Below, in pieces: positions 1 through 40,108 of a stretch of DNA of 64,000 nt. Each line of letters starts with the position of its first letter. The first letter of the stretch is position 1. Source of the DNA: a virus; IMG/VR virus record IMGVR_UViG_3300037843_000280, positions 1 through 64,000 of that record; one strand, given 5' to 3'. The position numbers and the translations under genes were made by a program. The notes under the pieces are model-generated. The model was not told where the DNA came from, ran no database searches, and was given only the letters and a program-made list of their open reading frames with translations.

Positions 1-354
1 ACATGGACGACCTGTATGTCGTGGGAGGCGGCGTTCTCGCTCGGCTTCACGACGCGGGTCTGGACGACGACCGGGGTCACGCTGTCCGCGAACGGGCGCA
101 CGAAGTGCGGACCGGGTGCGAGTTGCCGCACGGGGTCGCCGAAGCGCATCACGACGCCGACAGTGCCGGCCTTGATTTGCGTGAAGGACAGCATGAGGAA
201 GAAGAAGAGCGCCGAGAGCGCGAAGAGCGGGACGCCCCGGAGCGGACGCCACTTAAAACTCAATTCTGAGTCACGGGTTCCTATGTCTACCATCGAGAAG
301 CCGAGACCGCCGAGCAACGAGGCAAGAAAAAACAGAAAGAACAGAAATCCCATT
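1..354 (-). CDS. SPFH/band-7 (HflC/stomatin-like) membrane protein, N-terminal 118 aa; gene runs off the window start
   Basis: Own minus-strand translation from ATG 354..352: MGFLFFLFFLASLLGG (TM) ...IKAGTVGVVMRFGDPVRQLAPGPHFVRPFADSVTPVVVQTRVV matches the SPFH N-domain pattern. AGGAGA lies 5 nt upstream of the ATG. Not in the ORF track because it is partial. Confidence 0.55.
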
Positions 355-370
355 GGGTTCTCCTATAATA

Positions 371-402
371 TGCGCGGGGGGAAGCAGCGCCGCTTCCCCC
401 CA
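371..402 (-). other. Perfect 10-bp GC hairpin (ggggggaagc/gcttcccccc, 6-nt loop) in the leader of the SPFH gene; possible terminator/attenuator or module boundary
   Basis: Inverted repeat seen directly in the sequence between the 547..801 gene and the SPFH RBS. Confidence 0.4.
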
Positions 403-546
403 CATAGCTCAACCAGCGCTCAATCCCTGACCCGCACCGGAGGACTCACGTGACATTCAACCCTGCCGGAATATTGGCGGAATCTATTGGCTGATATTGT
501 TGCCGATCTGATAATACCGCTGGCGGCGGGATTTTGCAAGTGCGGC

Positions 547-801
547 CTATTGCGTGAATGGGACGTCGCAGGCCTCGCCCTCGTCGTACTCGGAGATGAC
601 GCCGTCGCCCAGCACCATGTCAAGATGCCTCGCGCACAGGAATACCTTCTGCCCACTAGGGGCGATGATGTAGTCCACTGCCGGGTCGGGGCAGCGGTCT
701 TTTTCGTCCTGCTTAAATTCCCCGTTGACGCACGTGAACATGTCTTCTACCTCCATGCCGCCCACAGAGATGCTGACAAAGTATAGCTCGCATTGCCTCA
801 T
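547..801 (-). CDS. Small protein, member of a 3-copy paralogue family (EPAVDY ... FLCARHLD motifs)
   Basis: ORF track. It shares PAVDY(I/V)I and (W/F)(L/Y)CxxH(Y/L)D motifs with the proteins at 3812..3979 and 7706..7876. Confidence 0.5.
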   Translation of the reverse strand: MRQCELYFVSISVGGMEVEDMFTCVNGEFKQDEKDRCPDPAVDYIIAPSGQKVFLCARHLDMVLGDGVISEYDEGEACDVPFTQ

Positions 802-806
802 AAGCT

Positions 807-893
807 TGGTACGCGGGGAGGACTTGAACCTCCCCCTGCTTCACCTACCTCACAGCGGGCGAGCAGGTGCTCCTTCTCTGAGCTACCCGCGTA
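807..893 (-). tRNA. tRNA-like gene (87 nt, type-II length) with intact acceptor stem, D-arm, T-arm (GGTTCAAGTCC) and CCA, but no foldable anticodon arm
   Basis: The reverse complement folds with acceptor tacgcgg/ccgcgta, D-stem gctc/gagc and T-stem ggagg/cctcc. No 5-bp/7-nt anticodon stem-loop exists at positions 27-43. Confidence 0.4.
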
Positions 894-967
894 TGGAACC
901 CCGAACGGGACTTTTACCCGCAACCTCTCGGACTAGAGCCGAGCGCTCTGCATTGAGCTACCGGGGT
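894..967 (-). tRNA. Amber suppressor tRNA, anticodon CUA (74 nt)
   Basis: Reverse complement accccggta-gctc-aatgca-gagc-g-ctcgg-ctCTAgt-ccgag-aggtt-gcggg-taaaagt-cccgt-tcggggt-t-cca. Perfect 5-bp anticodon stem, U33, anticodon CUA, G37. D-loop and T-loop are atypical. Confidence 0.65.
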
Positions 968-969
968 GC

Positions 970-1045
970 TGGCAATCCGGGCGGGCATCGAACCCGCATC
1001 TCAGGTTTTAGGGACCCGGCTCTAGCCACGTTGAGCTACCGGACT
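970..1045 (-). tRNA. tRNA, probable anticodon CUA (76 nt)
   Basis: Standard acceptor and D-arm with T-loop ttcgatg. The only foldable anticodon stem (cgggt/acctg, one GU pair) gives loop ccCTAaa, with C33 and the residue at position 26 missing. Confidence 0.45.
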
Positions 1046-1068
1046 GTATTGTGACTGATACTGGAGGC

Positions 1069-1144
1069 TGGTGCGCCCGGTCGGATTCGGACCGACGATC
1101 CCTGATTTAGAGGCAGGAGCTTTAGCCCACTAAGCTACGGGCGC
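1069..1144 (-). tRNA. tRNA, anticodon CUA (76 nt)
   Basis: Perfect acceptor gcgcccg/cgggcgc, D-stem gctt/aagc and T-arm gtcgg-tccgaat-ccgac. Anticodon stem cctgc/tcagg has a C-U mismatch at 31-39. Loop ctCTAaa has U33 and A37. Confidence 0.55.
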
Positions 1145-1165
1145 ATGTCCTTAGTATACAGTCTG

Positions 1166-1849
1166 TCAAACATTTTCGTCCATTTCCTCGAACTGCTTTT
1201 TCAGCTTGAGATACAACTCCTTGTCGCGTTCCGCATTCGCCTTCTTTTTCTTCTTAGCGGCTTCCGCTGCCTTTTCCGCCTTTTCCTTGGCTTCCTTCTG
1301 CTTCGCCTCGAAGTAGCGGTCGAGGCGCTTCTGTACTTCCCTCGCAATCGCATCGTCGAGCGCGTCGTCCTCAAGCCCGAGCAGGTACGACGGGAAGCTT
1401 TGCTCGTATGTCACGTACTCTGGGTGGCAGTGGCAGGCGTCGTTGTACTCGTACGAGAGTGTGAACTGGCTCTCGTCGAACGACTCCAGCTTTTCGAAGC
1501 TCCCGTGCGTTCGGATTCCGGGAAGGTTCGCGATCTTGAGCCGCTGAAGCTCCCTTCCGAGGGCTTGGTTATATTGGTCCGCGACCGCGAACGTCTGCTG
1601 GTGAATCCACTCGTATGTCTCTGCCGCTTCCTTAACGTCCTATGTCATCTCAGTTCTCCTTTGTCTTAGTTTTTGGACTTCCTCGATCAGGCTGCGTATG
1701 AATGAGCACAATTCGGGGTTGTCCGTTCCTCCGTAGTATTCCCCGTCCACGTAGAACTTGTCCTGGTTGCAATGCCCGGAACAATGGCAGGGAACATGCT
1801 CCCAGCCGTACTTGGTGCCGTCAATCTCGATCTCCAGCATTGTCATCAT
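1166..1849 (-). CDS. Amber-interrupted early gene: one frame from about 1849 (or ATG 1840) to TAA at 1166, with a single in-frame TAG at 1640..1642; ~227-aa readthrough product with duplicated CHC motifs
   Basis: ORF-track entries 1640..1849 and 1166..1414 are in the same frame. Own translation of the 75 codons after the TAG (DVKEAAETYEWIHQQTFAVADQYNQALGREL...NDACHCHPEYV) shows no stop and no ATG/GTG/TTG start. Both halves carry CHC motifs. Confidence 0.6.
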
Positions 1850-2114
1850 CCTCGGCGCAGTAGCCGCAGTGCGGGCACGTGACGCCGTATAGAATTCCCC
1901 AACAGAACTGCTTGCCGCACTTTTCGCAGCACAGAACGTGAGAGCCGGGGTTTAAGCTCCCGCAGCAGCAAACTCTTTTCGCGCCGTCCACAAACTCCGC
2001 TTTCGGGCAGCGAGCACAGAATCTCCGGCATTTCCATTCGTCAGTCGCAGGCAGCCAATGGCCCCATTCGTGGAGACCTAACAGGCATTTGACTGCGCTC
2101 ATCAATTCGCTCAT
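1821..2114 (-). CDS. Cys-rich zinc-finger-like small protein (97 aa)
   Basis: ORF track trimmed to internal start MSELMSAVK, which overlaps the upstream stop as ATGA. Contains CxxC and CCC clusters. Confidence 0.5.
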   Translation of the reverse strand: MSELMSAVKCLLGLHEWGHWLPATDEWKCRRFCARCPKAEFVDGAKRVCCCGSLNPGSHVLCCEKCGKQFCWGILYGVTCPHCGYCAEDDDNAGDRD

Positions 2115-2296
2115 GAGACGTCTCCCTCGGGGTCGCCCTTCCTGCGGATGCCCCAGCCGCCGCGCCAATACACATCTAAGGTGTCGTCCCACATCGCCTC
2201 GCGACGGTCGTTCCAACTGGGCCAGACCTCGTATTCCTTCCCGCCGATCCCGAGGAAACCGCCCGTCTTCTCCTTCTTTGGCGGCAGGTCCTTCAC
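2111..2296 (-). CDS. Hypothetical small protein (61 aa), GTG start overlapping upstream TGA
   Basis: ORF track. The in-frame upstream sequence is Arg-rich junk back to a TAA. Confidence 0.4.
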   Translation of the reverse strand: MKDLPPKKEKTGGFLGIGGKEYEVWPSWNDRREAMWDDTLDVYWRGGWGIRRKGDPEGDVS

Positions 2297-2778
2297 TGGG
2301 TCTTGGGGCTGAGGCCGAGCTTCTTGTAGGCGTATTCCGAAGCGCCTTGGCAGGCGTCGCTGTTATCCGGGCGAATCCTATCCGCCTGCTTCTTTACCCA
2401 CTCGTGGAAAGCCCCCATATCGACCCTCAGTTCCACGTCGCGGGCAGCTTGCCGGGTAACATCGTCGGACTTGCGGTAGCAGTCGGCGGTCGCACCGCTG
2501 AAATCCCCGTAGTCAATCTCGGCGTCGGGGTTGTCCCACAGCACATCGGTGATGCTCAGCGGCGAGATCACGACCTTGTGCCCGCTGGAGACATACCTGC
2601 CGCCCACGATGTCGTAATAGGGCTTCTTCGCGGGGTCGCGAATCAGCAGTTGCAGCCGCCCGTCCCAGTACGCAGGCTCGGCCGTCACGGTGAAGATGTC
2701 GATGTTATCGACGCAGACCTCAAGCTCGCCGCTCGGGTCCGCCTCTTGCAATTCTTGGATCAGGTCCTTAGTTTTCAT
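2293..2778 (-). CDS. Hypothetical protein (161 aa)
   Basis: ORF track with ATGA overlap to its neighbour. Confidence 0.55.
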   Translation of the reverse strand: MKTKDLIQELQEADPSGELEVCVDNIDIFTVTAEPAYWDGRLQLLIRDPAKKPYYDIVGGRYVSSGHKVVISPLSITDVLWDNPDAEIDYGDFSGATADCYRKSDDVTRQAARDVELRVDMGAFHEWVKKQADRIRPDNSDACQGASEYAYKKLGLSPKTQ

Positions 2779-3227
2779 TGCACTGCTCCTTCGTATTTAG
2801 ACTTTAGTTCGAGGTAGCGCTGGCGCTCGGCTTCCTCCGCCTCACGCTGCTCCTCGGCTTCCTTTGCTGACACACGCTCAAGGCGCTTGCGCTCGTGCTC
2901 GTCGTACGCCTTTTTCTGCGCTTCGATCCAGTCGTCGATGTTGTCGAGCCAGTCGTAGGGGATGACGATGGATAGGTAGTCGTATTCGCCACCGCCGCAA
3001 TACTTGCGACCCCTGAGAGTGATACTGTTTTCCCCGAACTCGTAGCCGTCGTCGTCGGATGCCCTAAACTCGTAGCCAGTGCGTGGAACCCACTTGGGTT
3101 CGTGGTCTTCGTAGATTTCCTCCCGCAGAAGTCCGGCGTTTTGGGCTTTCGCGAAGGCTTCCCGCATGATCTCGTGGAACTGCCCCTGCAACTGCTGAAG
3201 CTGCTTGCCCATCTCCCTAATCATCAT
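2775..3227 (-). CDS. Hypothetical protein (150 aa), charged C-terminal helix
   Basis: ORF track with ATGATGA overlap to its neighbour. Confidence 0.55.
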   Translation of the reverse strand: MMIREMGKQLQQLQGQFHEIMREAFAKAQNAGLLREEIYEDHEPKWVPRTGYEFRASDDDGYEFGENSITLRGRKYCGGGEYDYLSIVIPYDWLDNIDDWIEAQKKAYDEHERKRLERVSAKEAEEQREAEEAERQRYLELKSKYEGAVQ

Positions 3228-3628
3228 TGTAGCTCTCCTATCAAGACAGAATTTGCTTGCGTTGGCACTACAGGATTTGCTTGCGTTGGCTCAGGTTCCC
3301 GCCAGAGGCGGTAATTCGATAATATTTGACGCTGGTGCTGTTCGAGCGGGACGGTGGCCACGGCGGACAGGCCCATGTTGAAGTCCGGCTCGTAGAACAC
3401 CTGATGACCGATGTCCTTGGAACGGAGCTTCTCGATGGCGCGGAAGAGCGCCTGCTTGTCGGGTACGCCGATGACTATGCACGACGGGATTTCGTCTATG
3501 TCTAGGTCTTGGGGTTGCAAACGGCGGGCAACTTCGAAGGTCGCGTGGTTGGACTGAACGACCTGTTGTGCGAGGGGGATGTCTGTCCTTACGAAAACGT
3601 AAAAATAGGGGTGCTGAACCTATGCCAT
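3224..3628 (-). CDS. Amber-gated early gene: AGGAGG-N9-ATG GCA TAG followed by a 131-codon open frame (TAG at 3620..3622)
   Basis: Own minus-strand translation: ...AGGAGGctcaaaaacc ATG GCA TAG GTT CAG CAC... runs into ORF-track 3224..3520. The track start is a TTG with no RBS. There is no other start between the TAG and that TTG. Confidence 0.55.
3251..3290 (-). repeat. Tandem 16-nt repeat atttgcttgcgttggc x2 (period 24) inside the 3' end of the amber-gated gene; encodes PTQANxV x2
   Basis: Seen directly in the sequence. Confidence 0.6.
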
Positions 3629-3811
3629 GGTTTTTGAGCCTCCTAGCTCAATACTGCTATACGGTCTGAAAGTTCGAAAAGTATGGAGAACAGCCAGTGC
3701 CGATCCCGGCCCGAAGACCAATTGCTCTGTCCTCAGTCCAGTTGGCTTTCACCAACCCCTCCGGCTTGCCCTCCAATATCAAGCATATTGTCTCACGAAA
3801 TTTCCGGCCTG

Positions 3812-3979
3812 TCAAGGTCTATCTTCCGTCAGGGAACGACATAGCACCGCGTCGTAGTGCTCGGTGCAGAGCCACACTTGGTTGAACTTGATGGGGGCGG
3901 GTTCGTCGCAAAAGATCGGGTCGCCGTCTTCGCCCGGCTCCGTGTGGAAGTCCACGATATATTGGCAGCTATGCGCCAT
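3812..3979 (-). CDS. Small protein (55 aa), paralogue family member (DEPAPIKFNQVWLCTEHYD)
   Basis: ORF track trimmed to ATG 3979 (MAHSCQY). Motifs shared with 547..801 and 7706..7876. Confidence 0.45.
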   Translation of the reverse strand: MAHSCQYIVDFHTEPGEDGDPIFCDEPAPIKFNQVWLCTEHYDAVLCRSLTEDRP

Positions 3980-4193
3980 CTTGTTTCTTACACGTCGCAT
4001 CCATAATTTCGGGCGGCAAGTACATTGCACATTTGTGGGTTTCTAGGCAACGCCTGCACGTGTAACGTTTTAGGCCGCAATAGCCCGTTGGGTTGTGGTA
4101 GCAATCCTCAGTGATCCAGTCATGTTTTCGTAGTACAGTCCTGTTCCCGAAACGCCGAACGCCGTGGCGCTTTCCGATGTTGGTTTTAGCCAT
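3969..4193 (-). CDS. Hypothetical basic small protein (74 aa); ends in TAG
   Basis: ORF track. ATG overlaps the upstream TAA. Confidence 0.45.
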   Translation of the reverse strand: MAKTNIGKRHGVRRFGNRTVLRKHDWITEDCYHNPTGYCGLKRYTCRRCLETHKCAMYLPPEIMDATCKKQDGA

Positions 4194-4198
4194 TAAAG

Positions 4199-4606
4199 TT
4201 ATGCCTTAGTAGGCACAGACCATTCCAAGACCACATCGTCCGGTTCGAGCGGCTGCGTCCACCTCCAAGAATTGTCGTTGGTGATAATCCGCTCATAGCC
4301 GTTGATTTCCATGTTGCTGACTAGGATGCGGTCATCCTTCGTGGCTCTTGCCTTCACCTGCTCCAGCGTCTCGACCTTTCCCCCGAGGTAGTACATGGGG
4401 CTTGTCGCCGTCACCTTGGAATCCAAGTCCTCATAGCCCCGCGAGCGCGTCGTGAAGCGGAAGCCGTAGGGTGTAGCGCCGTATCGCTCCGTGATCTCGG
4501 TCGCCATAGCCTTGGCTGCCTCTACGTCCCAGGAGTCAATCGGCTTCGTGGTGTCCTCCGCCACGAACGTGCCCGGACTGAAAAACGTCACGAAATGCTT
4601 TTTCAT
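4199..4606 (-). CDS. Hypothetical protein (135 aa)
   Basis: ORF track. AGGAG 5 nt upstream of the ATG. TAA stop. Confidence 0.6.
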   Translation of the reverse strand: MKKHFVTFFSPGTFVAEDTTKPIDSWDVEAAKAMATEITERYGATPYGFRFTTRSRGYEDLDSKVTATSPMYYLGGKVETLEQVKARATKDDRILVSNMEINGYERIITNDNSWRWTQPLEPDDVVLEWSVPTKA

Positions 4607-4671
4607 ATGTTCTCCTCTGAAACTCTAATACTCGAATACTCGCCGTCCTGCCCGTCGCCGGTTTCCTTATT

Positions 4672-4699
4672 AGAAACAAAAAACCCCGCTTGCGCGGGG
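4672..4699 (-). terminator. Rho-independent terminator on the minus strand (ccccgc-gcaa-gcgggg followed by TTTTTGTTT)
   Basis: Hairpin plus T-tract seen in the sequence, ~70 nt upstream of the 4199..4606 start. Confidence 0.55.
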
Positions 4700-4897
4700 T
4701 CGTCTGTCGTGTTGAGGTTCGTTCCCACGGGGAACGTGCAGGCCGTTTTTCAGGCGGCTGCTGCAAAAGCCATTGCCTTTGGGGCAGTGACGTTTATGGT
4801 TTTGCTCATTTACGGAAGTTTGCTCTCCGGCTCGCGTGCAACTCTCATCGACCAAATGTCGAAACCAGTTCACCCACATGGTTTTGTGGGGAAATGA

Positions 4898-4929
4898 TGG
4901 TGTAGGTGGGGGGATTTGAACCCCCGTCC
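4898..4929 (-). other. Orphan tRNA/tmRNA-like 3' fragment: GGAC-GGGGGTTCAAATCCCCC-CACCTAC-A-CCA, with no 5' acceptor partner
   Basis: T-arm, 3' acceptor strand and CCA seen in the reverse complement. The 3' end resembles tmRNA termini, but a CDS occupies where the tmRNA body would lie. Confidence 0.4.
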
Positions 4930-5021
4930 ATCTGGCGACCTAAGCACCCAACTCCCCTTGCGGGGTTGTTACGAGCGTGTACATATATTACTTGAAAAGC
5001 CAGAAATGTCAAGTGATTGTT

Positions 5022-6392
5022 TCAGGGTTTGCGGCGATAAGCACTTTGGAACTTGCGCTCTTCCTTGATCATGTCCCGCACTTCATCGTAAACCTGGCCC
5101 TTTGGGTCTAGGCCGAGTTCCTCGATCCACGCGGCCAGCTTCTTGCGGCGGTAGGTGTCCGCCCTGGTCGCGGCAGTCGGGCGCAGACCGGGAAACTGCC
5201 TGTGGGGTTCCCAAGGCGGCTCCCCCTTTTCCCGGCGCTGCTGTTCGAACGACTTGTCGCTGAAGAACCCCTCTGGCAGGTCCTCGTCCGTGATCTCGAC
5301 GGGTTTCTCCTCGGCGGTCTTCGAGCCGCCCTCCAGAAGCTCGATCTCGTTCTCAAGCTCAATCCTGCGAAGTTTCGGGTTCTGCCACTCGTTGAGATAA
5401 CCCTCATCTTGTACCAGCGCGAACGCGATCTGCCGCGCCCGCTCGCGGTATATGGGCGGCACCGGGGAACCGTGGGTCACGAGGAATACGATGACGCCGA
5501 GATAGTGCTGGTCGTCATCTGCGCCTGTAGGTTCCATATCAAGCTCATCCAGCAAGGTCTGAAGCTCGCTGTCTGGCACAGGCTCGTCGAAGCCCTCTCC
5601 CTCGTCGCCCTTCGGGCGGTGGCTGTCGAGAATGTCGTGCACTTGGTCGCTGTCGTAGGAGCGGTCGCCCCACTGCCCGGCGAACTTGCCCTGGCTCCGC
5701 GCCGCCCACGCCGACTCCTGCTCGACGCTGGCGACGTACTTCGACGGGTGCAGTTCGCGCTCGCCCTTGACCTGCCTCGGGTCGTGCGTCTCCGCCCACA
5801 TCGCCCACAAGCCCTTCCGCGCCCTGATCTGGTCGGCAAACTCCGCCTTGACGATCTCCTCGGCGACGTGCATCTCCGGCTCGGTCGGAAACTGGAACAC
5901 GGAGAACTCGTCCTCCTCGTAGTGCGTGACGTCGAAGTCCTTCATCCCGGCCTTGGCGAGGTGGAACGCCACGGGACCGGCGGCCTTTGTGGGCACCGTG
6001 AAGCTGAAGCGCGGCGGCTTGCCGGCCAGCTTTTTTGCGGTGCGCCAGCGCCCCACTATACCTATGCCGACAGACCTCAGGAACTCGTCGTCTTTCCTCT
6101 TCGCTTCCTCAGGGCTTAGCTGGGGCGGCTCCTCTTCCTTCGGCTCGACGATGCTCTTCAGGGTCTCGGCGTCGGTCCACTTGGCGCTGCGGGTACCGTC
6201 CTCGGTGACGACCTGGTAGTACGGCTCCTCGGTGTCCCTGTCCACGTCGATCTTGACCTTGACGCCGCTGCGCGGGCTGCGCCACACCTCTTCCGTCGCG
6301 CCGGATGGGTGGAAGCCGTTGGCGTTTAGAATCTCGCGCCAGTCGTCGTCCGGGAACTTGCCCATGTCGCCCTTCTTCAGCAGGTCTGCCAT
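5022..6392 (-). CDS. Hypothetical acidic protein (456 aa)
   Basis: ORF track. GAGGG RBS. TGA stop. No recognisable motif. Confidence 0.6.
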   Translation of the reverse strand: MADLLKKGDMGKFPDDDWREILNANGFHPSGATEEVWRSPRSGVKVKIDVDRDTEEPYYQVVTEDGTRSAKWTDAETLKSIVEPKEEEPPQLSPEEAKRKDDEFLRSVGIGIVGRWRTAKKLAGKPPRFSFTVPTKAAGPVAFHLAKAGMKDFDVTHYEEDEFSVFQFPTEPEMHVAEEIVKAEFADQIRARKGLWAMWAETHDPRQVKGERELHPSKYVASVEQESAWAARSQGKFAGQWGDRSYDSDQVHDILDSHRPKGDEGEGFDEPVPDSELQTLLDELDMEPTGADDDQHYLGVIVFLVTHGSPVPPIYRERARQIAFALVQDEGYLNEWQNPKLRRIELENEIELLEGGSKTAEEKPVEITDEDLPEGFFSDKSFEQQRREKGEPPWEPHRQFPGLRPTAATRADTYRRKKLAAWIEELGLDPKGQVYDEVRDMIKEERKFQSAYRRKP

Positions 6393-6426
6393 AGAACCCT
6401 CACCAAAGGGAGAGGAAAACGACTAT

Positions 6427-6669
6427 TTAATGGGGTTTGCTGAACATCGGGCGTTCCAGTTGGCCCCTGTCGATTTTCTCCTCGATGATGTCGGCGTACT
6501 CGCGGAGAAGCCGGACAAACTCGTGCCCCTTTTCGGTAACATTGCCTATGACGAGGATCGACGGGGGGTCGGCGCTCATCATCACGCCCGCGAAGGCGAA
6601 GCCGTATTTTGAGGCGAGCAGGGTGAAGTTCTGGTACGCGATAAGCAGGTCGTCCGGTTGTTGTGTCAT
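6427..6669 (-). CDS. Hypothetical small protein (80 aa)
   Basis: ORF track. Confidence 0.45.
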   Translation of the reverse strand: MTQQPDDLLIAYQNFTLLASKYGFAFAGVMMSADPPSILVIGNVTEKGHEFVRLLREYADIIEEKIDRGQLERPMFSKPH

Positions 6670-6701
6670 ACTGCTATCTTAGCAAATTTGGCCGGACTAT
6701 A

Positions 6702-7265
6702 TCAACAAGTCTGCGGCGGAATCTTTGGCGGAGTGCCTGAGCCGGGCGTCCCGCCACCGGGATTATTGCCCGAGGGCTGAAACCCGAGAGCCTTGGGACC
6801 GTCCTTGATCACGTTAGGCCAGTTCTTGAAGAGCGGGAACCCGAGGTAGTAGTTTCCCGCGAACGCGATCCAGTACCCGCGCAGCGGGTCGAAGCCCGCG
6901 TCGAGCATGGTCACCCTGCCCGTCGCGATAGGGGGAACCGGGGGCGGGATCGGGAGGCCGGGATACCTGTTGTACAGGGCGGGCGTCGCCGCGTAGGGCG
7001 GGCGGTCAAGCTGCGCGGCGGGGATGGAAGCGCCGAACCACGGCCTGAGGAAAAGCCGGAAGCCGTCCTGCCGCGTGAGTTGGCCGATGTCGTACCAAAT
7101 CATATACAGCGAGTTGCCGAACAGCACGGTGGTCTGGGTTTTCGCCCAGATCGTGGTGACGGACAGCATGGCGCGGAGGCCCGAGTCCCACGGGATGCCC
7201 GAGACCGGGAGCACCTCTTGCGGCTGAGGCTGGCTAAGCTGCAACGCGAATATGTTTTCGCCCAT
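6702..7265 (-). CDS. Hypothetical protein with Pro-rich C-terminus (187 aa; start trimmed to MGENIF)
   Basis: ORF track 6702..7310 trimmed to an ATG that overlaps the ferredoxin stop as TAATG. Confidence 0.5.
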   Translation of the reverse strand: MGENIFALQLSQPQPQEVLPVSGIPWDSGLRAMLSVTTIWAKTQTTVLFGNSLYMIWYDIGQLTRQDGFRLFLRPWFGASIPAAQLDRPPYAATPALYNRYPGLPIPPPVPPIATGRVTMLDAGFDPLRGYWIAFAGNYYLGFPLFKNWPNVIKDGPKALGFQPSGNNPGGGTPGSGTPPKIPPQTC

Positions 7266-7438
7266 TATTGTACCAGGTGGATGGCCTGAGTCTCGCACAC
7301 CGGCTCGCAAGCCCCGCAGTCAATGCAGTCCTCATTGACGCAGAACGATCCATCATCCTTTTTTATGATAGCCGCGACCGGGCAAGCCTCGACGCAGTCG
7401 CCGTCCCTCTTGCATTTCTCTTGGTCGATTTCGTACAT
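7265..7438 (-). CDS. 7Fe-type ferredoxin-like protein (57 aa; CKRDGDCVEACPV ... CIDCGACEPVCE)
   Basis: Own translation MYEIDQEKCKRDGDCVEACPVAAIIKKDDGSFCVNEDCIDCGACEPVCETQAIHLVQ. It closely resembles Azotobacter-type FdI cluster motifs. Not in the ORF track because it is under 60 aa. Confidence 0.65.
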   Translation of the reverse strand: MYEIDQEKCKRDGDCVEACPVAAIIKKDDGSFCVNEDCIDCGACEPVCETQAIHLVQ

Positions 7439-7444
7439 CAGCTT

Positions 7445-7696
7445 TCACTCTTCGTCATAAGCCTTCATCGGACAGTCAAACTTGTGCGGAAACGGCTTCT
7501 CGCGGATCGAGGCTATTCTGCCGCACTTGCCGCACTTGAATGCAAGACCTTCTTCGCCGTCCACCATTTCGTAGGCGAAGCCCATCATTACATCCTGGTC
7601 CCCGCGCTTGATCTCGGCGATCTCTTCCGGGGTAAGCTCGTCGTTTTCGTCGTCGAAGTCGCACTCGTCTTCAAAATCCTCGAAATCGCTTGCCAT
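7445..7696 (-). CDS. Acidic Zn-ribbon small protein (83 aa)
   Basis: ORF track. GAGGG RBS. CGKCG...C...C motif. Confidence 0.55.
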   Translation of the reverse strand: MASDFEDFEDECDFDDENDELTPEEIAEIKRGDQDVMMGFAYEMVDGEEGLAFKCGKCGRIASIREKPFPHKFDCPMKAYDEE

Positions 7697-7705
7697 AGGA
7701 CACCC

Positions 7706-7876
7706 TCAAAAGGAACGTATATCAAAGCGGTCGTAGTGCGCCGCGCAGTACCACAGCCTGCCTTTGTCATCGGCGAGAGGGTGACGGCGGTAGTTTATGA
7801 CGTAGTCCACGGCTGGCTCGCCGCAAGCTTCCCATTCGCCGCCAGGCAACTCTATGCGCCAGACGCACGCTTCCAT
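7706..7876 (-). CDS. Small protein (56 aa), paralogue family member (GEPAVDYVINY...RLWYCAAHYDRF)
   Basis: Own translation. Not in the ORF track because it is under 60 aa. Confidence 0.45.
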   Translation of the reverse strand: MEACVWRIELPGGEWEACGEPAVDYVINYRRHPLADDKGRLWYCAAHYDRFDIRSF

Positions 7877-7879
7877 ATT

Positions 7880-8176
7880 TTACGCCCACCCCGTGCCGCC
7901 GCAAGCTTCGCAGCCCTTGCCGCCGCACTCCTTGCAGCGCAGCATCTTCTCAAGCTCCGGGTGCTTCTCCGCGATCTGGGCGTCCTTCTTGGCGCGGCTT
8001 TCGTAGAACGCCTTGAAGAAAGTCTGGCCAGCAGGCGTCTGCTTGAAGCCCGCCTTGAAGCTGAGCAGAAACGCCGTCCAAAACTTGCTGAGGTACCAGT
8101 CCCAAAGCATCTTGAGCGGAAACACCACGGCCGCGCCGATGCCAGCCCAGACCCAATGTGACCAGTGCCCGCTCAT
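7880..8176 (-). CDS. Small membrane protein with C-terminal Zn-ribbon (98 aa)
   Basis: ORF track. Hydrophobic stretches. CKECGGKGCEACGG. Confidence 0.5.
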   Translation of the reverse strand: MSGHWSHWVWAGIGAAVVFPLKMLWDWYLSKFWTAFLLSFKAGFKQTPAGQTFFKAFYESRAKKDAQIAEKHPELEKMLRCKECGGKGCEACGGTGWA

Positions 8177-8179
8177 ATC

Positions 8180-8785
8180 TCAGAAACTCTCCTTGAATGC
8201 TAGCAACGGAGTAATACTATTAAGAGAGACAGCTAGTTCAACCGCCTCCCAGATTTCGTGTGGAACTGCCACATATTTTCTCTGATTATGCGATTGAACA
8301 GATTTGGTTGCCCATCGGCAATTCTTCGGTTCATAATTTCCATTGACTTGCTTTCTGTCAATAGAAAATGTCTCACCAGGTTTCGGCCCCAAGTCAGCGA
8401 AAAAATTTTGAAAGGAGCCACCTTTCTCTGGATTCCAACGGTCGCAGACTGTGATGCCACGCCCGCCGTAACCCGAATAATGTGAATCGTTGGAATTAAA
8501 GCATCTCTGAAGAAGCCCTTCCCATGCGCGATATTCTGAACTTGGCTTTCCTCCAATTGCGTGCCCATGTTTAAGGTTGGCTTGACCCATTCGTTGACTG
8601 TTTTCACGGAGTAAACATTTGCAACTTAAAGTTCGACCGTCTTTAAGATGACAAGCACTTTTGGTGACTACGTTTCCGCAATCACAAAGACATAACCATA
8701 GTGCATTTCCGTGCTTATCCGAACCTTCTCGATTTTGAACGAGAAGGCGACCGAATCTTTGACCCGTTAAATCTGATGATCGCAT
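8180..8785 (-). CDS. HNH homing endonuclease (201 aa)
   Basis: LTGQRFGRL N-terminal motif, a Cys cluster, and NCRWAT...N, typical of the phage HNH_3 family. Confidence 0.6.
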   Translation of the reverse strand: MRSSDLTGQRFGRLLVQNREGSDKHGNALWLCLCDCGNVVTKSACHLKDGRTLSCKCLLRENSQRMGQANLKHGHAIGGKPSSEYRAWEGLLQRCFNSNDSHYSGYGGRGITVCDRWNPEKGGSFQNFFADLGPKPGETFSIDRKQVNGNYEPKNCRWATKSVQSHNQRKYVAVPHEIWEAVELAVSLNSITPLLAFKESF

Positions 8786-8830
8786 ATACCCTCACTATAT
8801 AATACTTTCAAAGTAGGTATATTGTGAGGG

Positions 8831-9493
8831 TCAGAATGATAAAATCCAAGAAAAAATTATATCAACTCCGGCAGGCAAGATGAGCGGCGGTAAAGTCTTA
8901 TAATTCACTAAGATAACCGAGTCCGCCGGGCCGGGAGGCGTGGCGCTTGGATTGAAGAACGGCGCGGTCACCATGTTCGTCGGCTGCCCGCCAGCGCCGA
9001 CCAGCGTTCCGCCGCCAATCAATCCCATCTCGCGGATGCTCTGAGTGATGTTGTCGGTGGTGGCGTTGACCGTGGTCTGGAAGTCCACCATCGTGCTGAA
9101 CTGATTGACTGGGTTGAAATTGGCGTCCACGAAGTTGATCTGCGAAAGCGGCTTGCGCAAGAACTGAGAGATAAGCGCCGTTTGGACGGGGGAGGGGTCA
9201 GGCTGCGTCTCGGGTGCCCAGCTTGGGGAGCCAGCGCCTAGCGCCAAGCCCCACACGCCGTACAGCGGGTCCGCGCTGACGCCCGCCTGCCCGAGGGTAT
9301 AGGGCACGGCGGGGGAATTCGGCAAAGCGTTCGCACAAAGTCTTGAAAATAAAAATTTCACGACGTTCACGATGATGTTGTGACCCGTCCAGAGCATCTC
9401 GCCGTTGTCCGCCCGCATGACGCGGATGTTGATCCTGGCGGGCTTCATGTCCACGATGTCCGTGCCAAGCTGTATTTTCCTGATTTCATTCAT
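8831..9493 (-). CDS. Virion structural protein (220 aa)
   Basis: ORF track. Last gene of the fibre operon. AGAGG RBS. Confidence 0.5.
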   Translation of the reverse strand: MNEIRKIQLGTDIVDMKPARINIRVMRADNGEMLWTGHNIIVNVVKFLFSRLCANALPNSPAVPYTLGQAGVSADPLYGVWGLALGAGSPSWAPETQPDPSPVQTALISQFLRKPLSQINFVDANFNPVNQFSTMVDFQTTVNATTDNITQSIREMGLIGGGTLVGAGGQPTNMVTAPFFNPSATPPGPADSVILVNYKTLPPLILPAGVDIIFSWILSF

Positions 9494-9504
9494 AAATTCG
9501 CCTC

Positions 9505-10947
9505 TTAAATGGCTCCCTTAGCCTCAATACCAGATTCCACAGGCTTTGCCTCGGTGAAGTCCTTGTCCGTGATGGCGCGGAAGCCGACGCGCTGCACGCG
9601 GCCGTCGCTGCGCAGGTGGTACACCTGCCAGTTGCCGTCGTCCAGCTTGACACCATAGCGGTGGATGAAGTAGTTCGGGATGATGATAACGTTCTTGCCC
9701 TCGAACGTCCCGTAGTAGCCCACGCGGTCGATCACCATCTTGCCCTCGAAGATCGGCTTCCCGGCGAGGCCGTCGCGGATCAGGCGCTTCTGGAGCTTGT
9801 CGAGCGGCACGAGGTCGTCGTATGTCTTCTCCGGCTTCTTGTAGACCATCTTGCCGTCTTCGCTCTTGTGCCAGACCTGGTCCGGTCGGATCGAGTCCTT
9901 GCGCACCTGCGTGTTCGGCTGCGGGGCTTCCGGCTCGGCGGCTTCCTTGACTTCATCCTTCGGAGCCTCCTTCATGTCCTTTGGCTGCTCAAGAATCTCC
10001 TGCGGGATCATCGTCCACTTGAAGCGATTGCGCGGCACGGGGAAGTTCAGCAGCCGCATCTTGCGGAACGTCGGGCGTCCGGGGAAAATCTGCGAGCGCC
10101 CGTCGGGGAACTTGGCGATCCAGTCCTGCGGACCGTGGTACAGCGCCATATCGCCGCCCGCGACCGCCTCGGGCTGGTACGTCATGCCTTCCACGGAAAT
10201 CGCACGCGGGATGCCGTTGAGCGGGGCGGCCTTCATCTCCTGCTCGTTCACGAAACTCACGGGCGCGGTGAAGTCCACGTTGCCCTTCTTGAGCGCCTTG
10301 AGAAGCTGGTTCTTGAACTGTTTTCCCGTGCCTATCGGGATCGTCCCCGTGGCGCGGCCAAGCTGGTCGTACACGATCACGAACATCGGCTTCGGTTGCT
10401 GCCTGAGCGAGCGGTTGCGGTACTGCCTGATCACGCGGGCGGTGTCGCTCGGCTTCGTCTTCTGCTTCGGCGAGTACGTAAGCTCGATGTGGCGGATTTT
10501 TGGCTCGCGCTTGATCTTCTTCGCAGACCCGGTCACCACGTGCTCCTGCGTCGCGTTGATGAAGTCCATCGGAATCTCGAACGTGCCCTCGTAAATTTGA
10601 ACGGTTGGGTCTTGTCCTATGGAGTCCTGCTCCTTCGCCGTGTCCGCCTCGGTACTCATGCCCTTGAACGCGGACAGCACAGTCTGGTACATCTTGACAA
10701 TCACAGGCTCCTCATACTGTTGCGCGAGCATGAACGCGGCGACCTCGTCGCACAGTACGTTGATAGCCTCGGCGATAAGCTCGGACATGGCGCGAGGCCC
10801 GCCCTCGGCGAGCGGCAGGTTCATCGAAAACACAGTAAAATTGGGAATTCCGAGGTCAAGATTTAGAGATACTCTTGGATGTGCGTCTCGGATTATGGCT
10901 ATTTCCAAGATACCGTGTGGCGGTGAGACATAAGAATGTTTTTCCAT
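9505..10947 (-). CDS. Virion structural protein (480 aa)
   Basis: ORF track. Sits in the late operon. Confidence 0.5.
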   Translation of the reverse strand: MEKHSYVSPPHGILEIAIIRDAHPRVSLNLDLGIPNFTVFSMNLPLAEGGPRAMSELIAEAINVLCDEVAAFMLAQQYEEPVIVKMYQTVLSAFKGMSTEADTAKEQDSIGQDPTVQIYEGTFEIPMDFINATQEHVVTGSAKKIKREPKIRHIELTYSPKQKTKPSDTARVIRQYRNRSLRQQPKPMFVIVYDQLGRATGTIPIGTGKQFKNQLLKALKKGNVDFTAPVSFVNEQEMKAAPLNGIPRAISVEGMTYQPEAVAGGDMALYHGPQDWIAKFPDGRSQIFPGRPTFRKMRLLNFPVPRNRFKWTMIPQEILEQPKDMKEAPKDEVKEAAEPEAPQPNTQVRKDSIRPDQVWHKSEDGKMVYKKPEKTYDDLVPLDKLQKRLIRDGLAGKPIFEGKMVIDRVGYYGTFEGKNVIIIPNYFIHRYGVKLDDGNWQVYHLRSDGRVQRVGFRAITDKDFTEAKPVESGIEAKGAI

Positions 10948-10949
10948 AC

Positions 10950-11588
10950 TTACACTTTCAAAAGCTGGCAGAACTCACACTTTGGACTGATGACTGCTCG
11001 ATCTCGATGATAACGGTTATGCCCGCTCAGTCGCCCATAATAACTTGCCATTAGCTTAACTTCTTCAGCGTGATGTTTTCCAAACATAGGATTTTTTGCG
11101 CCCAGCGTTCTAACTGATAATGCTCGGTGCCGATCTTTAGACGAATTAGCCCAAGATTGTTTGCTTCCCTCTCCGACTCTTTGACGATGTTGAGTTGAAA
11201 GCTTTCGACCCGTCATTTTTCTTCGCTGTTTTAGCTTTTGCTCCTCACTAGCACGTACTCCTAATCGACTTCTTGCTCGCGGGCATATGTTGTATCCGAC
11301 TTTTCTATCAAAGGATTTGATTTGATCAAGCCAAACTTGTTCATGAGGTATCAACAAAGCATAATCCGGCACCTTTTCTACTACTTCAAAAGAAAAAGCA
11401 GATTCCCCATATTTATTCCAAGCTCGTTGCAAATAGGGATTTTCATGAACACCTCGCTGAAGAGACGATGAATGATCCTGCCATCGTCTCTTAATGTCCA
11501 CGGCTGAGCCGATGTACACCTTGCCGTTGACGCCATTCTTGATGGCGTAAATGCCGCTGACTCCGTAGTTTAAGTCTAAGTGTCTCAT
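10950..11588 (-). CDS. GIY-YIG homing endonuclease with NUMOD3-like repeats (trimmed start MRHLD)
   Basis: GIYAIKNGVNGKVYIGSAVDIKRRWQDH motif. Free-standing between structural genes. Confidence 0.7.
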   Translation of the reverse strand: MRHLDLNYGVSGIYAIKNGVNGKVYIGSAVDIKRRWQDHSSSLQRGVHENPYLQRAWNKYGESAFSFEVVEKVPDYALLIPHEQVWLDQIKSFDRKVGYNICPRARSRLGVRASEEQKLKQRRKMTGRKLSTQHRQRVGEGSKQSWANSSKDRHRALSVRTLGAKNPMFGKHHAEEVKLMASYYGRLSGHNRYHRDRAVISPKCEFCQLLKV

Positions 11589-11592
11589 GCTA

Positions 11593-38782: not shown

Positions 38783-39448
38783 CTAGCTGTCAAGTACAAG
38801 GTCTTCCGTGGTTTCGTCTTCTGGTGCGCCGTGCATCGTAACCTTGCCGAGTAGGCGGCGGTTGTAGGACAGCTTCGAGAGTTGGTACACGCCTTTGGAC
38901 ACGAGCAAACGTGGATTGAAGAACATGTGAAGGCGGGTATCAATATCGGCGATTAGCGGATCGGGGACGAAGATGTTGATCCAAAAGCCATGGGATTCCT
39001 CACCATCGCTCTTGCCGATTTGCAAGTAAGGGATGAGTTCTGGCGTGCCAGCAGCAGTGAGTTGCTTGATAGCTTGTGCCTCGTAAGATGGGTTGCAGCC
39101 GATTTTCATGGTACCCCTATCGGCGCAGATGGCGTCTAGGGCCTCGACTAATTCGGGTTCGACGGGGAGTATGTCGGCGAAGTCGCCGTCATGAAGCTTG
39201 GGGTCGTAGCGGGAATACTTACTCGCCTCGTAGGCTTCCTCAGTGACGAGTTGACGCTTGATGACACTGAGCGACTTGCCATTCACTGTGATAAAATTCT
39301 TGCTGGTTTCCGGAATGAGCTTCGACTCTTCGCCAAAATTGATGGAAAACAGCCCGGGCTTGGCGCACTGACGCTCAACCGTGCCGATGCCGAATTCGTC
39401 GTGGTCTACAGTATCGCCAACCTTGAGTTTGATCTGATGTCTAACCAT
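38783..39448 (-). CDS. Hypothetical protein (221 aa); TAG stop backed up by TAG and TAA within 5 codons
   Basis: ORF track. Confidence 0.5.
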   Translation of the reverse strand: MVRHQIKLKVGDTVDHDEFGIGTVERQCAKPGLFSINFGEESKLIPETSKNFITVNGKSLSVIKRQLVTEEAYEASKYSRYDPKLHDGDFADILPVEPELVEALDAICADRGTMKIGCNPSYEAQAIKQLTAAGTPELIPYLQIGKSDGEESHGFWINIFVPDPLIADIDTRLHMFFNPRLLVSKGVYQLSKLSYNRRLLGKVTMHGAPEDETTEDLVLDS

Positions 39449-39580
39449 ACCCTAGTATACAGCGGGGGCCTCGCGTTTGTCCACCCGCTTGAAAATATTT
39501 CCCACGACAGATGTACTTTTTACATAACGACAAATAAATAAGTAACTTACGGCAGGAATCATCGACATAGTGATGTGGCT

Positions 39581-40108
39581 CTACAGCCCGCCGTTGTCGG
39601 GGTAGACCAATCCTGCGCGGTGTAACCAGTTCTTCAGGTAAGGGGCGTCTCCGGGGTTGTTCGCGACGACCTCGCGGTCCCAGTTGGCGCGGGCGGTGCG
39701 CAGTTGCGAGGCGAGTGTTGGCTGGTCCGACTTGTCGATCAGGCTCAACGTGGTGGGACCGATCACGCCGTCCGCCGTGACGCCGAGCAACGCTTGGAGC
39801 ACTTTGACCGCACGCGAGCAGCCGGAGTTGATCCCAAAGTCCATCATCACGCTGGCCAGCCCGTCGTCGTTCACGAAGTCCAGGTGGAGCGGGTGCCAGT
39901 ATTCGCTGCCGTAAATTTGCACTGCCTCGGCGAGCGCCGTGGTGGTGTCGCAGGTGTAGAAGTCCGCAGGTATCTCGGGGTGGGCGTTGCTCGCTATCCC
40001 GAAGCGCGTCCTGCCCCCGATGTCGCCGGGCAGGGTCGTGACCTTGCCGGAAAGCGTGGAGTCCTCGAAGCGGATGACCCACTGGATGATGCCGTTCTTG
40101 TTTGCCAT
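39581..40108 (-). CDS. Endolysin: GH108 lysozyme-like domain plus PG_binding_3 (175 aa)
   Basis: GGRTRFGI and ALLGVTADGVIGPTTL motifs. Confidence 0.65.
   Translation of the reverse strand: MANKNGIIQWVIRFEDSTLSGKVTTLPGDIGGRTRFGIASNAHPEIPADFYTCDTTTALAEAVQIYGSEYWHPLHLDFVNDDGLASVMMDFGINSGCSRAVKVLQALLGVTADGVIGPTTLSLIDKSDQPTLASQLRTARANWDREVVANNPGDAPYLKNWLHRAGLVYPDNGGL

Follow-up and report, generated by a model that had tools for sequence, protein, structure and literature searches.

Why should a phage that reads the standard genetic code encode several tRNAs matching a stop codon? The question is raised by the DNA studied here, a stretch of 64,000 nucleotides (nt) that covers positions 1 to 64,000 of the IMG/VR virus record IMGVR_UViG_3300037843_000280 and is referred to, as a whole, as the window. 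Its minus strand carries three tRNA genes with the anticodon CUA, i.e. candidate suppressors of the amber codon UAG, to which an earlier note made from the sequence alone had drawn attention. The answer that we consider probable is that these are functional suppressor tRNAs licensing a few genes with UAG right after the start, and not the instruments of a genome-wide recoding. It is based on the structures and anticodons of the tRNAs, on the conservation of an early UAG in the genes concerned, on TAG being the only type of stop met at that place, and on the co-occurrence of such genes with CUA tRNAs.

ARAGORN predicted three minus-strand tRNAs with the anticodon CUA (t1, t2 and t3, Table 1), as the earlier note had expected of this program. 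All three matched the Rfam model RF00005 over its full length (model positions 1-71), with 54.1, 44.2 and 60.2 bits, respectively, the gathering score of the model being 29 bits. Both methods agreed in placing CUA at positions 34-36 of a 7-nt loop; a sense anticodon, which the note had named as the result that would overturn its claim, was found by covariance-model folding in none of them. The loops that it had read from the DNA (ctCTAgt, ccCTAaa and ctCTAaa) were recovered by ARAGORN and Rfam alike, as were the perfect 5-bp anticodon stem, U33 and G37 of t1, and the layout in standard numbering returned the differing acceptor stems and the discriminators U, G and A that had been listed. The CCA end is encoded in each gene. 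The mutual identity of the three tRNAs is only 61-66%, which indicates old paralogues or separately derived genes and not recent duplicates.

Each of these tRNAs has orthologues in related loci (designated here L001 and so on). That of t1 in L001 (at 2395) was 96% identical and displayed a compensatory change from C4-G69 to U4-A69; the T-loop type of t1 was met again in L003 (12415), L008 (8002) and L019 (8416). Orthologues of t2 were found in L001 (2318, 88% identity) and L009 (8931, 85%). The latter also has C33 where U33 is near-universal, as has a CUA tRNA of L003 (12311), and this recurrence argues that the C33 of t2 is not a one-off defect. Those of t3, in L009 (8720), L010 (7612) and L012 (7636), were 76-78% identical. 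As orthologues exist for all three, it seems that as many separate suppressor lineages have persisted through considerable divergence. RNAalifold recovered the cloverleaf from 27 CUA tRNAs, 20 of its 21 pairs showing compensatory changes, and the loop CUCUAAA was shared by 21 of 28 CUA tRNAs that had been chosen only by their anticodon. As far as sequence comparison can tell, t1, t2 and t3 are real tRNAs under selection and not chance features.

Charging of the three tRNAs by different synthetases is plausible in view of their differing acceptor stems and discriminators. For t2, the combination of A1-U72, G73 and the CUA anticodon would amount to a Trp/Gln-type set by E. coli identity rules. 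Discriminators differed even inside orthologous groups (U, G or A among t1-type tRNAs, A or G among t3-type ones). When the three were aligned globally with about 176 sense tRNAs of related loci, nothing informative on ancestry and identity emerged, the best non-CUA matches (Lys, Ile, Thr and Gln) lying at 69-75%. The label tRNA-Pyl, which ARAGORN attaches to any CUA anticodon, was rejected on the structure of the tRNAs, no search for pylS or pylBCD having been made: tRNA-Pyl has a 6-bp anticodon stem, a 3-nt variable loop and one base between acceptor and D stems, and all three tRNAs had 5-bp anticodon stems, a U8-A9 spacer and variable regions of 4-5 nt. It is also worth noting that a G3-U70 pair occurred in none of the CUA tRNAs examined, and that L003 (12976-13830) and L006 (14706-15554) encode, 0.5-2 kb downstream of their CUA tRNAs, a protein of about 284 amino acids matching only the N-terminal part of the catalytic domain of alanyl-tRNA synthetase (AlaRS; PF01411, 87-96 bits).

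Genes that such tRNAs could serve were sought on both strands of the window, the requirement being a TAG with 60 or more open codons behind it that displayed coding periodicity. Two genes and no others, both on the minus strand, had a start at most two codons upstream of the TAG and then a long open reading frame (ORF) without a near start (genes 1 and 2, Table 1), and a wider pattern scan over all fetched loci returned the same two window genes plus obvious antisense artefacts. The amber-interrupted genes announced at 0.5-2.5 kb from the tRNAs were thus located, and the genome that encodes the suppressors contains in-frame UAGs for them to read. Both genes open with a Shine-Dalgarno (SD) sequence followed by AUG-NCA-UAG-G. 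Gene 1 has 131 codons from TAG to TGA, with the first ATG, GTG or TTG after 33 codons, downstream of its most conserved motif, VQSNHA; gene 2 has 157 codons and none of these triplets among the first 75. In both, conserved coding sequence is reachable only by decoding UAG at codon 3. Being real and conserved, these genes are plausible targets for the CUA tRNAs. The TAG of gene 2 doubles as the end of an upstream in-frame ORF (1640-1849). A search of 5.8 billion proteins yielded one relative of gene 2, and an exact-peptide scan of viral contigs nothing; the three known members, from the window, L003 (MT#SVKEAAEAYQW, where # stands for the in-frame TAG) and L032 (MT#DAKQLAETYEW), all share the M-T-TAG leader.

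Table 1. Coordinates and characteristics of the tRNAs, tRNA-like elements, amber-interrupted genes and leaders (#, in-frame TAG).
Feature	Position	Strand	Characteristics
t4, tRNA-like element abutting t1	810..893	-	tRNA-like acceptor, D and T arms; 23-nt extended hairpin replaces anticodon loop
t1, CUA tRNA	894..967	-	acceptor ACCCCGG (A1-U72); anticodon stem CUCGG/CCGAG, perfect; loop CUCUAGU (U33, G37); U73; atypical elbow: D loop AAUGCA without GG, T loop UAAAAGU without UUC
t2, CUA tRNA	970..1045	-	acceptor AGUCCGG (A1-U72, G2-U71); anticodon stem CGGGU/ACCUG (one G-U); loop CCCUAAA (C33 in place of near-universal U33, A37); G73
t3, CUA tRNA	1069..1144	-	acceptor GCGCCCG; D stem GCUU/AAGC; anticodon stem CCUGC/UCAGG (C31-U39 mismatch); loop CUCUAAA (U33, A37); A73
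TATACT, promoter-like -10 hexamer	1153..1158	-	precedes t3, with which the cluster starts, by 8 nt; consensus scan
Gene 2	1166..1648	-	SD AAGGAG (1656-1661), N7, ATG (1646-1648), ACA, TAG (1640-1642), GAC
Gene 1, PTH2-like	3224..3628	-	SD AGGAGG (3639-3644), N10, ATG (3626-3628), GCA, TAG (3620-3622), GTT
Permuted (two-piece) tmRNA	4750..4952	-	Rfam RF04321, 91.5 bits; ARAGORN 4659-4990; tag VTAPKAMAFAAAA
t4 orthologue, L001	2470-2557		
t4 orthologue, L008	8188-8276		
t4 orthologue, L009	8543-8620		
t4 orthologue, L010	7009-7087		
UUA or tRNA-like gene, L011	7047-7124		
UUA or tRNA-like gene, L009	8544-8617		
UUA or tRNA-like gene, L010	7010-7084		
UUA or tRNA-like gene, L010	7405-7480		
UUA or tRNA-like gene, L016	6354-6504		
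UUA or tRNA-like gene, L028	11838-11909		
UUA or tRNA-like gene, L032	5549-5623		
PTH2-like leader, window			MA#
PTH2-like leader, L001			MA#
PTH2-like leader, L003			MQ#
PTH2-like leader, L006			MM#
PTH2-like leader, L008			MSQH#
PTH2-like leader, L009			MKLQLEGL#
PTH2-like leader, L010			ML#
PTH2-like leader, L011			MH#
PTH2-like leader, L012			VA#
PTH2-like leader, L013			MT#
PTH2-like leader, L016			MH#
PTH2-like leader, L017			MT#
PTH2-like leader, L019			MT#
PTH2-like leader, L020			MSNEH#
PTH2-like leader, L021			MH#
PTH2-like leader, L032			ML#
PTH2-like leader, Ralstonia RsoM2USA			ML#
PTH2-like leader, Cronobacter GAP32			MAQ#
PTH2-like leader, Salmonella Arash			ML#
PTH2-like leader, Acinetobacter ME3			MT#
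PTH2-like leader, Yersinia fHe-Yen9-03			MSH#
PTH2-like leader, Serratia BF			MTH#

The ORF past the TAG of gene 1 had more than 70 homologues in a metagenome protein collection, for none of which a Pfam domain had been precomputed, and the best-conserved motifs of these homologues (FVRQD, VQSNHA, IGVPDK, EPD and LSNY) start directly after the TAG. The Pfam model PTH2 (PF01981) was passed by the homologues of phages XacN1 (28.6 bits) and RsoM2USA (25.1 bits), others scoring 16-20 bits. When the AlphaFold model of the product, a low-confidence one with a predicted local distance difference test (pLDDT) score of 61, was submitted to Foldseek, the top matches in the PDB were Pth2 proteins (2zv3, 3erj and 1q7s, the last being Bit1), all with E > 0.01; for 2zv3 the probability was 0.99 and the template modelling (TM) score 0.51-0.58. 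Part of the homologue of Salmonella phage Arash is annotated as peptidyl-tRNA hydrolase in its GenBank record. Protein and profile searches of PDB sequences returned only a designed repeat protein, a match considered spurious, and a Pfam search with ten neighbouring proteins, including both amber-interrupted ones, gave nothing at E <= 0.01. The product of gene 1 is best regarded as a divergent PTH2-like protein, and not as a proven PTH2, with a putative hydrolase activity.

Distribution of the early TAG was analysed among 25 distinct loci encoding the PTH2-like protein, with DNA drawn from ENA/Logan/JGI contigs, IMG/VR and GenBank phages. In 22 of them, an in-frame TAG lies 2-8 codons after an ATG or GTG preceded by an SD sequence and 3-7 codons ahead of the conserved YFY/FVR motif, and this leader was kept down to about 40% protein identity. 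Its second codon varies freely; conservation is seen in the residues past the TAG (V/I-x-x-YFYVFVRxD). No ATG, GTG or TTG was found for at least 20 codons past the TAG in ten loci, nor in the whole ORF past the TAG in Yersinia phage fHe-Yen9-03 and Serratia phage BF. Three loci departed from the pattern. In phage RaK2, the gene simply starts with ATG, and none of the eight tRNAs in the 12 kb fetched was a CUA tRNA. In XacN1 (L024, AP018399.1 243756-244595), the PTH2-like domain forms the C-terminal part of ORF364, where it is fused to an HD-like domain, and ATG AAG TAG (MK#) occurs five codons upstream of the annotated ATG. The third, L022, is considered below with other unfavourable observations.

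The fusion in XacN1 links two amber-interrupted families, since HD-like proteins (motif HDCGKP) are themselves preceded by TAG leaders in L001 (ML#INLCKLEAPM), L008 (ML#TNLCKLEEPM), L006 (ML#MNL) and RsoM2USA (MKS#ISKEELEAPM). The HD-like and AlaRS-like (PF01411) genes of the relatives were absent from the 64-kb window. Taking the three gene families together, the interrupting stop was TAG in 30 of 30 leaders and never TAA or TGA, each of which is 2.4 times commoner than TAG as a terminator in the window. The base following the stop (+4) was a purine in all 30, the background purine frequency at the first codon position being 0.63; the naive probability of this is about 1e-6, and about 4e-3 when independence is granted to only 12 lineages. 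A 3' purine reportedly favours amber suppression, as known from context effects in E. coli.

Of the 22 loci with a TAG leader, 20 had CUA tRNAs, one to three each, at a distance of 0.3-3.7 kb from it. For L013, co-occurrence was checked within the ±6 kb fetched, and in RsoM2USA the CUA tRNA is elsewhere in the genome, away from the leader. The tRNA of Arash that ARAGORN called CUA carries a tRNA-Phe annotation. It is worth noting that the PTH2-like gene has fared badly in GenBank, evidently because of its early TAG: it is unannotated in MG752970 (RsoM2USA), KY630187 (BF) and LT960552 (fHe-Yen9-03), cut to its last 77 codons in JN882285 (GAP32) and divided into two coding sequences in OQ632216 (Arash). 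In XacN1, ORF360, annotated as glutamyl-tRNA amidotransferase, lies about 1.2 kb upstream of ORF364. Some 20-25 nt upstream of the PTH2-like ATG of the window (about 3650-3660, minus strand), a GCAGTAT(T/A) motif was observed, which recurs at the same position in L001, L003, L006, L008, L009, L010, L019 and RsoM2USA. The phages concerned are distant relatives, and the motif may represent the -10 element of a phage promoter providing the PTH2-like gene with its own short-leader transcript.

The same gene block contains a permuted transfer-messenger RNA (tmRNA, Table 1), flanked by a promoter-like site (TTGACA-16-TAATAT, 5012-4985) and an intrinsic-terminator-like hairpin (4701-4682). A tmRNA occupies the corresponding place in L003, L006, L008-L010, L012, L021 and L022, and the tags of relatives (AAPREMAFAAAA, ATAPKALAMAAAA) are similar to that of the window. 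This tmRNA is a candidate functional partner of the amber-interrupted genes, in ribosome rescue.

The tRNA cluster was initially described as four abutting tRNAs. Three stand; the fourth (t4) is tRNA-like only, lacks a normal anticodon loop and was called a tRNA neither by ARAGORN nor by the Rfam tRNA model. It folds as a cloverleaf (-42.5 kcal/mol, z = -3.2), and its orthologues in four relatives share near-invariant acceptor and T arms (ACGCGGG...CCCGCGU-A-CCA) and an invariant 5' half of the D arm. The window copy is short of one C between T and acceptor stems. The anticodon arm differs from phage to phage, with the 23-nt hairpin in the window, a UUUUGAU loop in L001 and L008 (a possible UUG anticodon) and 6-nt loops in L009 and L010. 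Because an extended hairpin takes the place of its anticodon loop, t4 is probably not a decoder; it looks like a tRNA mimic with a function independent of decoding. Other unusual genes were noted beside the CUA tRNAs of relatives, namely a tRNA called with the ochre anticodon UUA in L011 (7047-7124) and several tRNA-like genes to which ARAGORN assigned 'anticodons' of 2 or 4 nt.

Three explanations other than licensing of a few genes were considered, and the coding standard of the phage bears on the most obvious of them. The window has 58% GC and nearly all genes on the minus strand. PHROG matches were few (a tail protein and a DnaB-like helicase), and megablast of positions 1-12000 matched none of 50,697 phage records; protein relatives were found beside Baseplate_J and similar genes, on contigs from IMG/VR and metagenomes that reach 463 kb. 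CUA suppressor tRNAs are a hallmark of TAG-recoded phages (Lak, crAss-like and others) and the visible portion is only 64 kb of a genome likely exceeding 200 kb, so that one could suppose TAG to encode an amino acid (code 15), either genome-wide or in a late-gene block, with the tRNAs serving this recoding. However, the large structural and tail-region genes contained no in-frame TAG with coding signal on both flanks, and ORF coverage hardly shifted when TAG was read through (from 0.984 to 0.999). Among 53 genes of a hand-curated list, 22 end in TGA, 22 in TAA and 9 in TAG, in keeping with the earlier statement that genes end mostly in TAA or TGA. The TAG-terminated ones include a lysozyme-like gene, a ParB-like gene and a gene ending TAG-3 codons-TAG-TAA; several show natural C-termini and some have tandem back-up stops. 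Frames of small early genes could not be scored by a codon-usage log-odds model trained on large genes and stayed unmapped by it; GC periodicity (third minus second codon position, GC3-GC2) performed better and gave many antisense shadow matches, which were set aside. A code-15 genome would have many genes with in-frame TAGs, better ORFs on read-through and TAG abandoned as a terminator; here the sole in-frame TAGs were at codon 3 of two out of about 53 genes, and cultured relatives with the same module are handled as standard-code phages in their papers. As the large genes lack in-frame TAGs and TAG still terminates others, genome-wide code 15 is rejected for the visible part, which is that of a standard-code jumbo phage, and recoding on either scale is given very little credence.

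The other two explanations accept the standard code and dispute what the tRNAs or the leaders do. The ATG-NNN-TAG units might be true two-codon mini-ORFs, the downstream ORF depending on re-initiation or on a non-canonical start for its translation and the CUA tRNAs acting elsewhere, by extending TAG-ended host or phage proteins or by disturbing host termination. Leaders of this kind do resemble minigenes of the lambda bar type (strong SD, AUG, one codon, stop), some relatives have a GTG or ATG 6-9 codons past the TAG, and TAG-ended genes that a suppressor could extend exist, such as the lysozyme-like gene at 39581-40108, in frame with the next gene. What makes this explanation improbable to us is the exclusive use of the one stop matching CUA in 30 leaders, despite the greater abundance of TGA and TAA, together with the position of the beta-1 strand YFYVFVR and, in the window, of the invariant VQSNHA upstream of any canonical start. 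Moreover, the codon after the TAG varies (GTT, ATT, ATC, GAT, AAT, AAC, ACC, AGC or GAC), which excludes a fixed non-canonical start, and the authors on XacN1 saw no added similarity past terminal amber stops. Alternatively, the CUA tRNAs could be non-decoding molecules, mimics or decoys against host defences targeting tRNAs or processing or priming elements, in which CUA would be incidental. The presence in the cluster of the clearly non-decoding t4, the 2- or 4-nt 'anticodons' of tRNA-like genes in relatives and the atypical elbow of t1 would fit such a role. Yet the anticodon arm of t4 varies freely, whereas the CUCUAAA loop recurs in most CUA tRNAs with covarying stems, and the matching TAG leaders would be left unexplained; a non-decoding role is thus rated as highly improbable, on a par with recoding.

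If the CUA tRNAs do license genes with an early UAG, the following course of events can be proposed, in which we infer that the tRNAs are expressed and charged and that UAG is indeed read through, as well as what the arrangement is for. The cluster would be transcribed, possibly from the TATACT hexamer upstream of it, and processed into tRNAs with their CCA end already encoded, which host synthetases would charge. A ribosome starting at the AUG would reach UAG at codon 3, where the CUA tRNA would compete with release factor 1 (RF1). Without suppressor, RF1 would free a dipeptide or the dipeptidyl-tRNA would drop off; with it, translation would run on into the enzyme. The PTH2-like protein and the product of gene 2 would then be made only when, and in proportion as, suppressor tRNA is active. 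The UAG stands in a short, sequence-variable N-terminal leader, so the inserted amino acid would probably be irrelevant, and several suppressors that differ in acceptor stem and discriminator could therefore serve equally well. A UAG at codon 3 followed by a purine would maximise suppression and minimise waste, the abortive product being trivial because only a dipeptide is lost. In minigenes, termination at stops of the codon-3 type is reportedly inefficient, and peptidyl-tRNA drop-off frequent. Suppression would also put the approximately nine terminal TAGs at risk of read-through, leading to non-stop ribosomes, and PTH2-like output would scale with suppressor activity. As a speculation, the purpose that we favour would be a timer, or a feed-forward coupling of tRNA-recycling functions (the PTH2-like protein and, in relatives, the HD-like one, with the tmRNA nearby) to suppressor activity.

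Several observations weigh against the licensing of genes by suppression. The C33 of t2 and the mismatched 31-39 pair of t3 may reduce the activity of these tRNAs. The TATACT hexamer is a bare consensus match, from a scan that gave 4 sites when 2.0 were expected. The window protein reached only 15.7 bits (E = 0.018) with Pfam PTH2, under the 23-bit gathering cut-off, and the mean pLDDT of its AlphaFold model was low. Possible starts at 6-9 codons past the TAG, GTG or ATG, are present in several relatives, and L022 (31% identity) has a PTH2-like gene without TAG in spite of a CUA tRNA 130 nt downstream. The lineages compared are phylogenetically related, so the leader counts overstate their independence. 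Lastly, TAG remains the terminator of about nine window genes, and efficient suppression would extend their proteins. Taking these points into account, we hold to functional suppressors licensing a few genes as the probable reading. Its wider form supposes a natural amber gate spanning jumbo phages from Acinetobacter ME3 to uncultured phages on contigs of up to 463 kb, in which suppressors would mainly license a tiny regulon (PTH2-like, HD-like and a third protein) through a UAG near codon 3 and would couple recycling and rescue to suppressor activity or to the balance between RF1 and elongation. For this broader proposal we consider the chances to be even.

CUA tRNAs were already known from standard-code jumbo phages, with two in Xanthomonas phage XacN1 and one each in RsoM2USA, GAP32, ME3, BF and fHe-Yen9-03. 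Of the earlier claim that natural amber suppressors are unusual in a phage whose genes end mostly in TAA or TGA, the tRNAs are confirmed, and such suppressors are less rare than it implied. The elements of these phages are of the kind described here and, judging from the surrounding genes, belong to one module with those of the window, an early-TAG PTH2-like homologue together with CUA tRNA; compared with these phages, the window has three divergent suppressors and a second amber-interrupted gene of a different family. The XacN1 paper left its CUA tRNAs without a target, similarity having been sought, and not found, only past terminal amber stops, and the RsoM2USA paper gave no specific target gene and only a count of all TAG triplets. 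In recoded phages, suppression was proposed to time the translation of certain genes (Borges et al., bioRxiv 10.1101/2021.08.26.457843). In the code-15 phages described there (TAG to Gln; Lak and crAss-like), a phage CUA tRNA likewise decodes in-frame TAG. However, many of their genes, often late or lytic ones, have multiple in-frame TAGs and TAG is largely dropped as a stop, whereas in the window TAG interrupts two of about 53 genes, within the first few codons only, and still terminates others.

Comparable principles are found outside recoded phages. The bldA tRNA-Leu(UAA) of Streptomyces exerts control through the rare TTA codon, and here as there a dedicated tRNA would gate a small regulon bearing an otherwise unreadable codon; bldA acts on a rare sense codon by means of a cellular tRNA, and the window would use a stop codon at a fixed spot by the start codon and a phage tRNA. 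The prfB gene, for RF2, has an autoregulatory in-frame UGA at codon 26 that is bypassed by +1 frameshifting and senses RF2. A conserved early in-frame stop, with competition in the A site between termination and alternative decoding, is common to both cases, but the bypass in the window would be in-frame via a suppressor tRNA, and the gene encodes a PTH2-like putative hydrolase and not a release factor. A similar layout is that of the lambda bar minigenes, which are said to be free-standing and toxic when peptidyl-tRNA hydrolase is limiting. SD, AUG, one sense codon and stop are all present in the window (AGGAGG-N10-ATG GCA TAG and AAGGAG-N7-ATG ACA TAG), as is a functional tie to peptidyl-tRNA hydrolase, at least by likeness of the gene 1 product; in contrast to bar, the two codons run on in frame into a conserved ORF and the stop is always one readable by a co-encoded tRNA. 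Synthetic amber-codon switches from genetic code expansion (PMC6412442) combine an early UAG with an orthogonal suppressor tRNA for on/off control of translation; they are engineered and need an unnatural amino acid, whereas the gate proposed here would be natural and rely on host synthetases. No earlier description of the link between early TAG and PTH2 was met in the literature searched, mostly outside subscription journals, and a prior description is possible. By class, the tRNAs are ordinary phage-encoded amber suppressors; a conserved suppressor-dependent gate had apparently not been described before in that literature.

A few further features of the window deserve mention. The ORF at its left edge encodes an SPFH/Band_7 protein. 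On the minus strand, 7265-7438 is an ORF for 57 amino acids among the early genes with two ferredoxin-like cysteine motifs, CxxCxxCxxxC(P). The ORF at 8180-8785 (minus strand, 201 amino acids) has a GC3 of 0.36, compared with 0.7-0.85 in its neighbours, and looks recently acquired; relatives have GIY-YIG homing-endonuclease genes in the syntenic interval that separates the tmRNA from the same structural genes. In the region 38783-40108 (minus strand), the lysozyme-like gene ends in TAG and is followed, after 42 open codons and a second TAG, by the gene at 38783-39448 in the same frame, which itself ends TAG-3 codons-TAG-TAA. Suppression of both intervening TAGs would fuse the two products.

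Phage suppressor tRNAs are usually taken as a sign of whole-genome stop reassignment. The present finding is less exotic than a recoded genome, yet points to a conserved suppressor-dependent gate, and it supplies a specific and testable target for orphan CUA tRNAs: the UAG near codon 3 in PTH2-like genes and in two other families. If the gate is real, the orphan suppressor tRNAs of several cultured jumbo phages would be explained, engineered amber switches would have a natural counterpart, and several divergent suppressors (three in this case) would keep the gate robust to the host synthetase or to defences targeting tRNAs. The hosts of cultured phages with the module include Acinetobacter, Salmonella, Serratia, Cronobacter and Ralstonia, so that the module is open to direct tests. 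Confirmation would establish a natural stop-codon translational switch built on a dedicated tRNA, of relevance to the ways in which phages control host translation, to the design of orthogonal switches and to the evolution of recoding, of which a few tolerated in-frame stops could be the first step.

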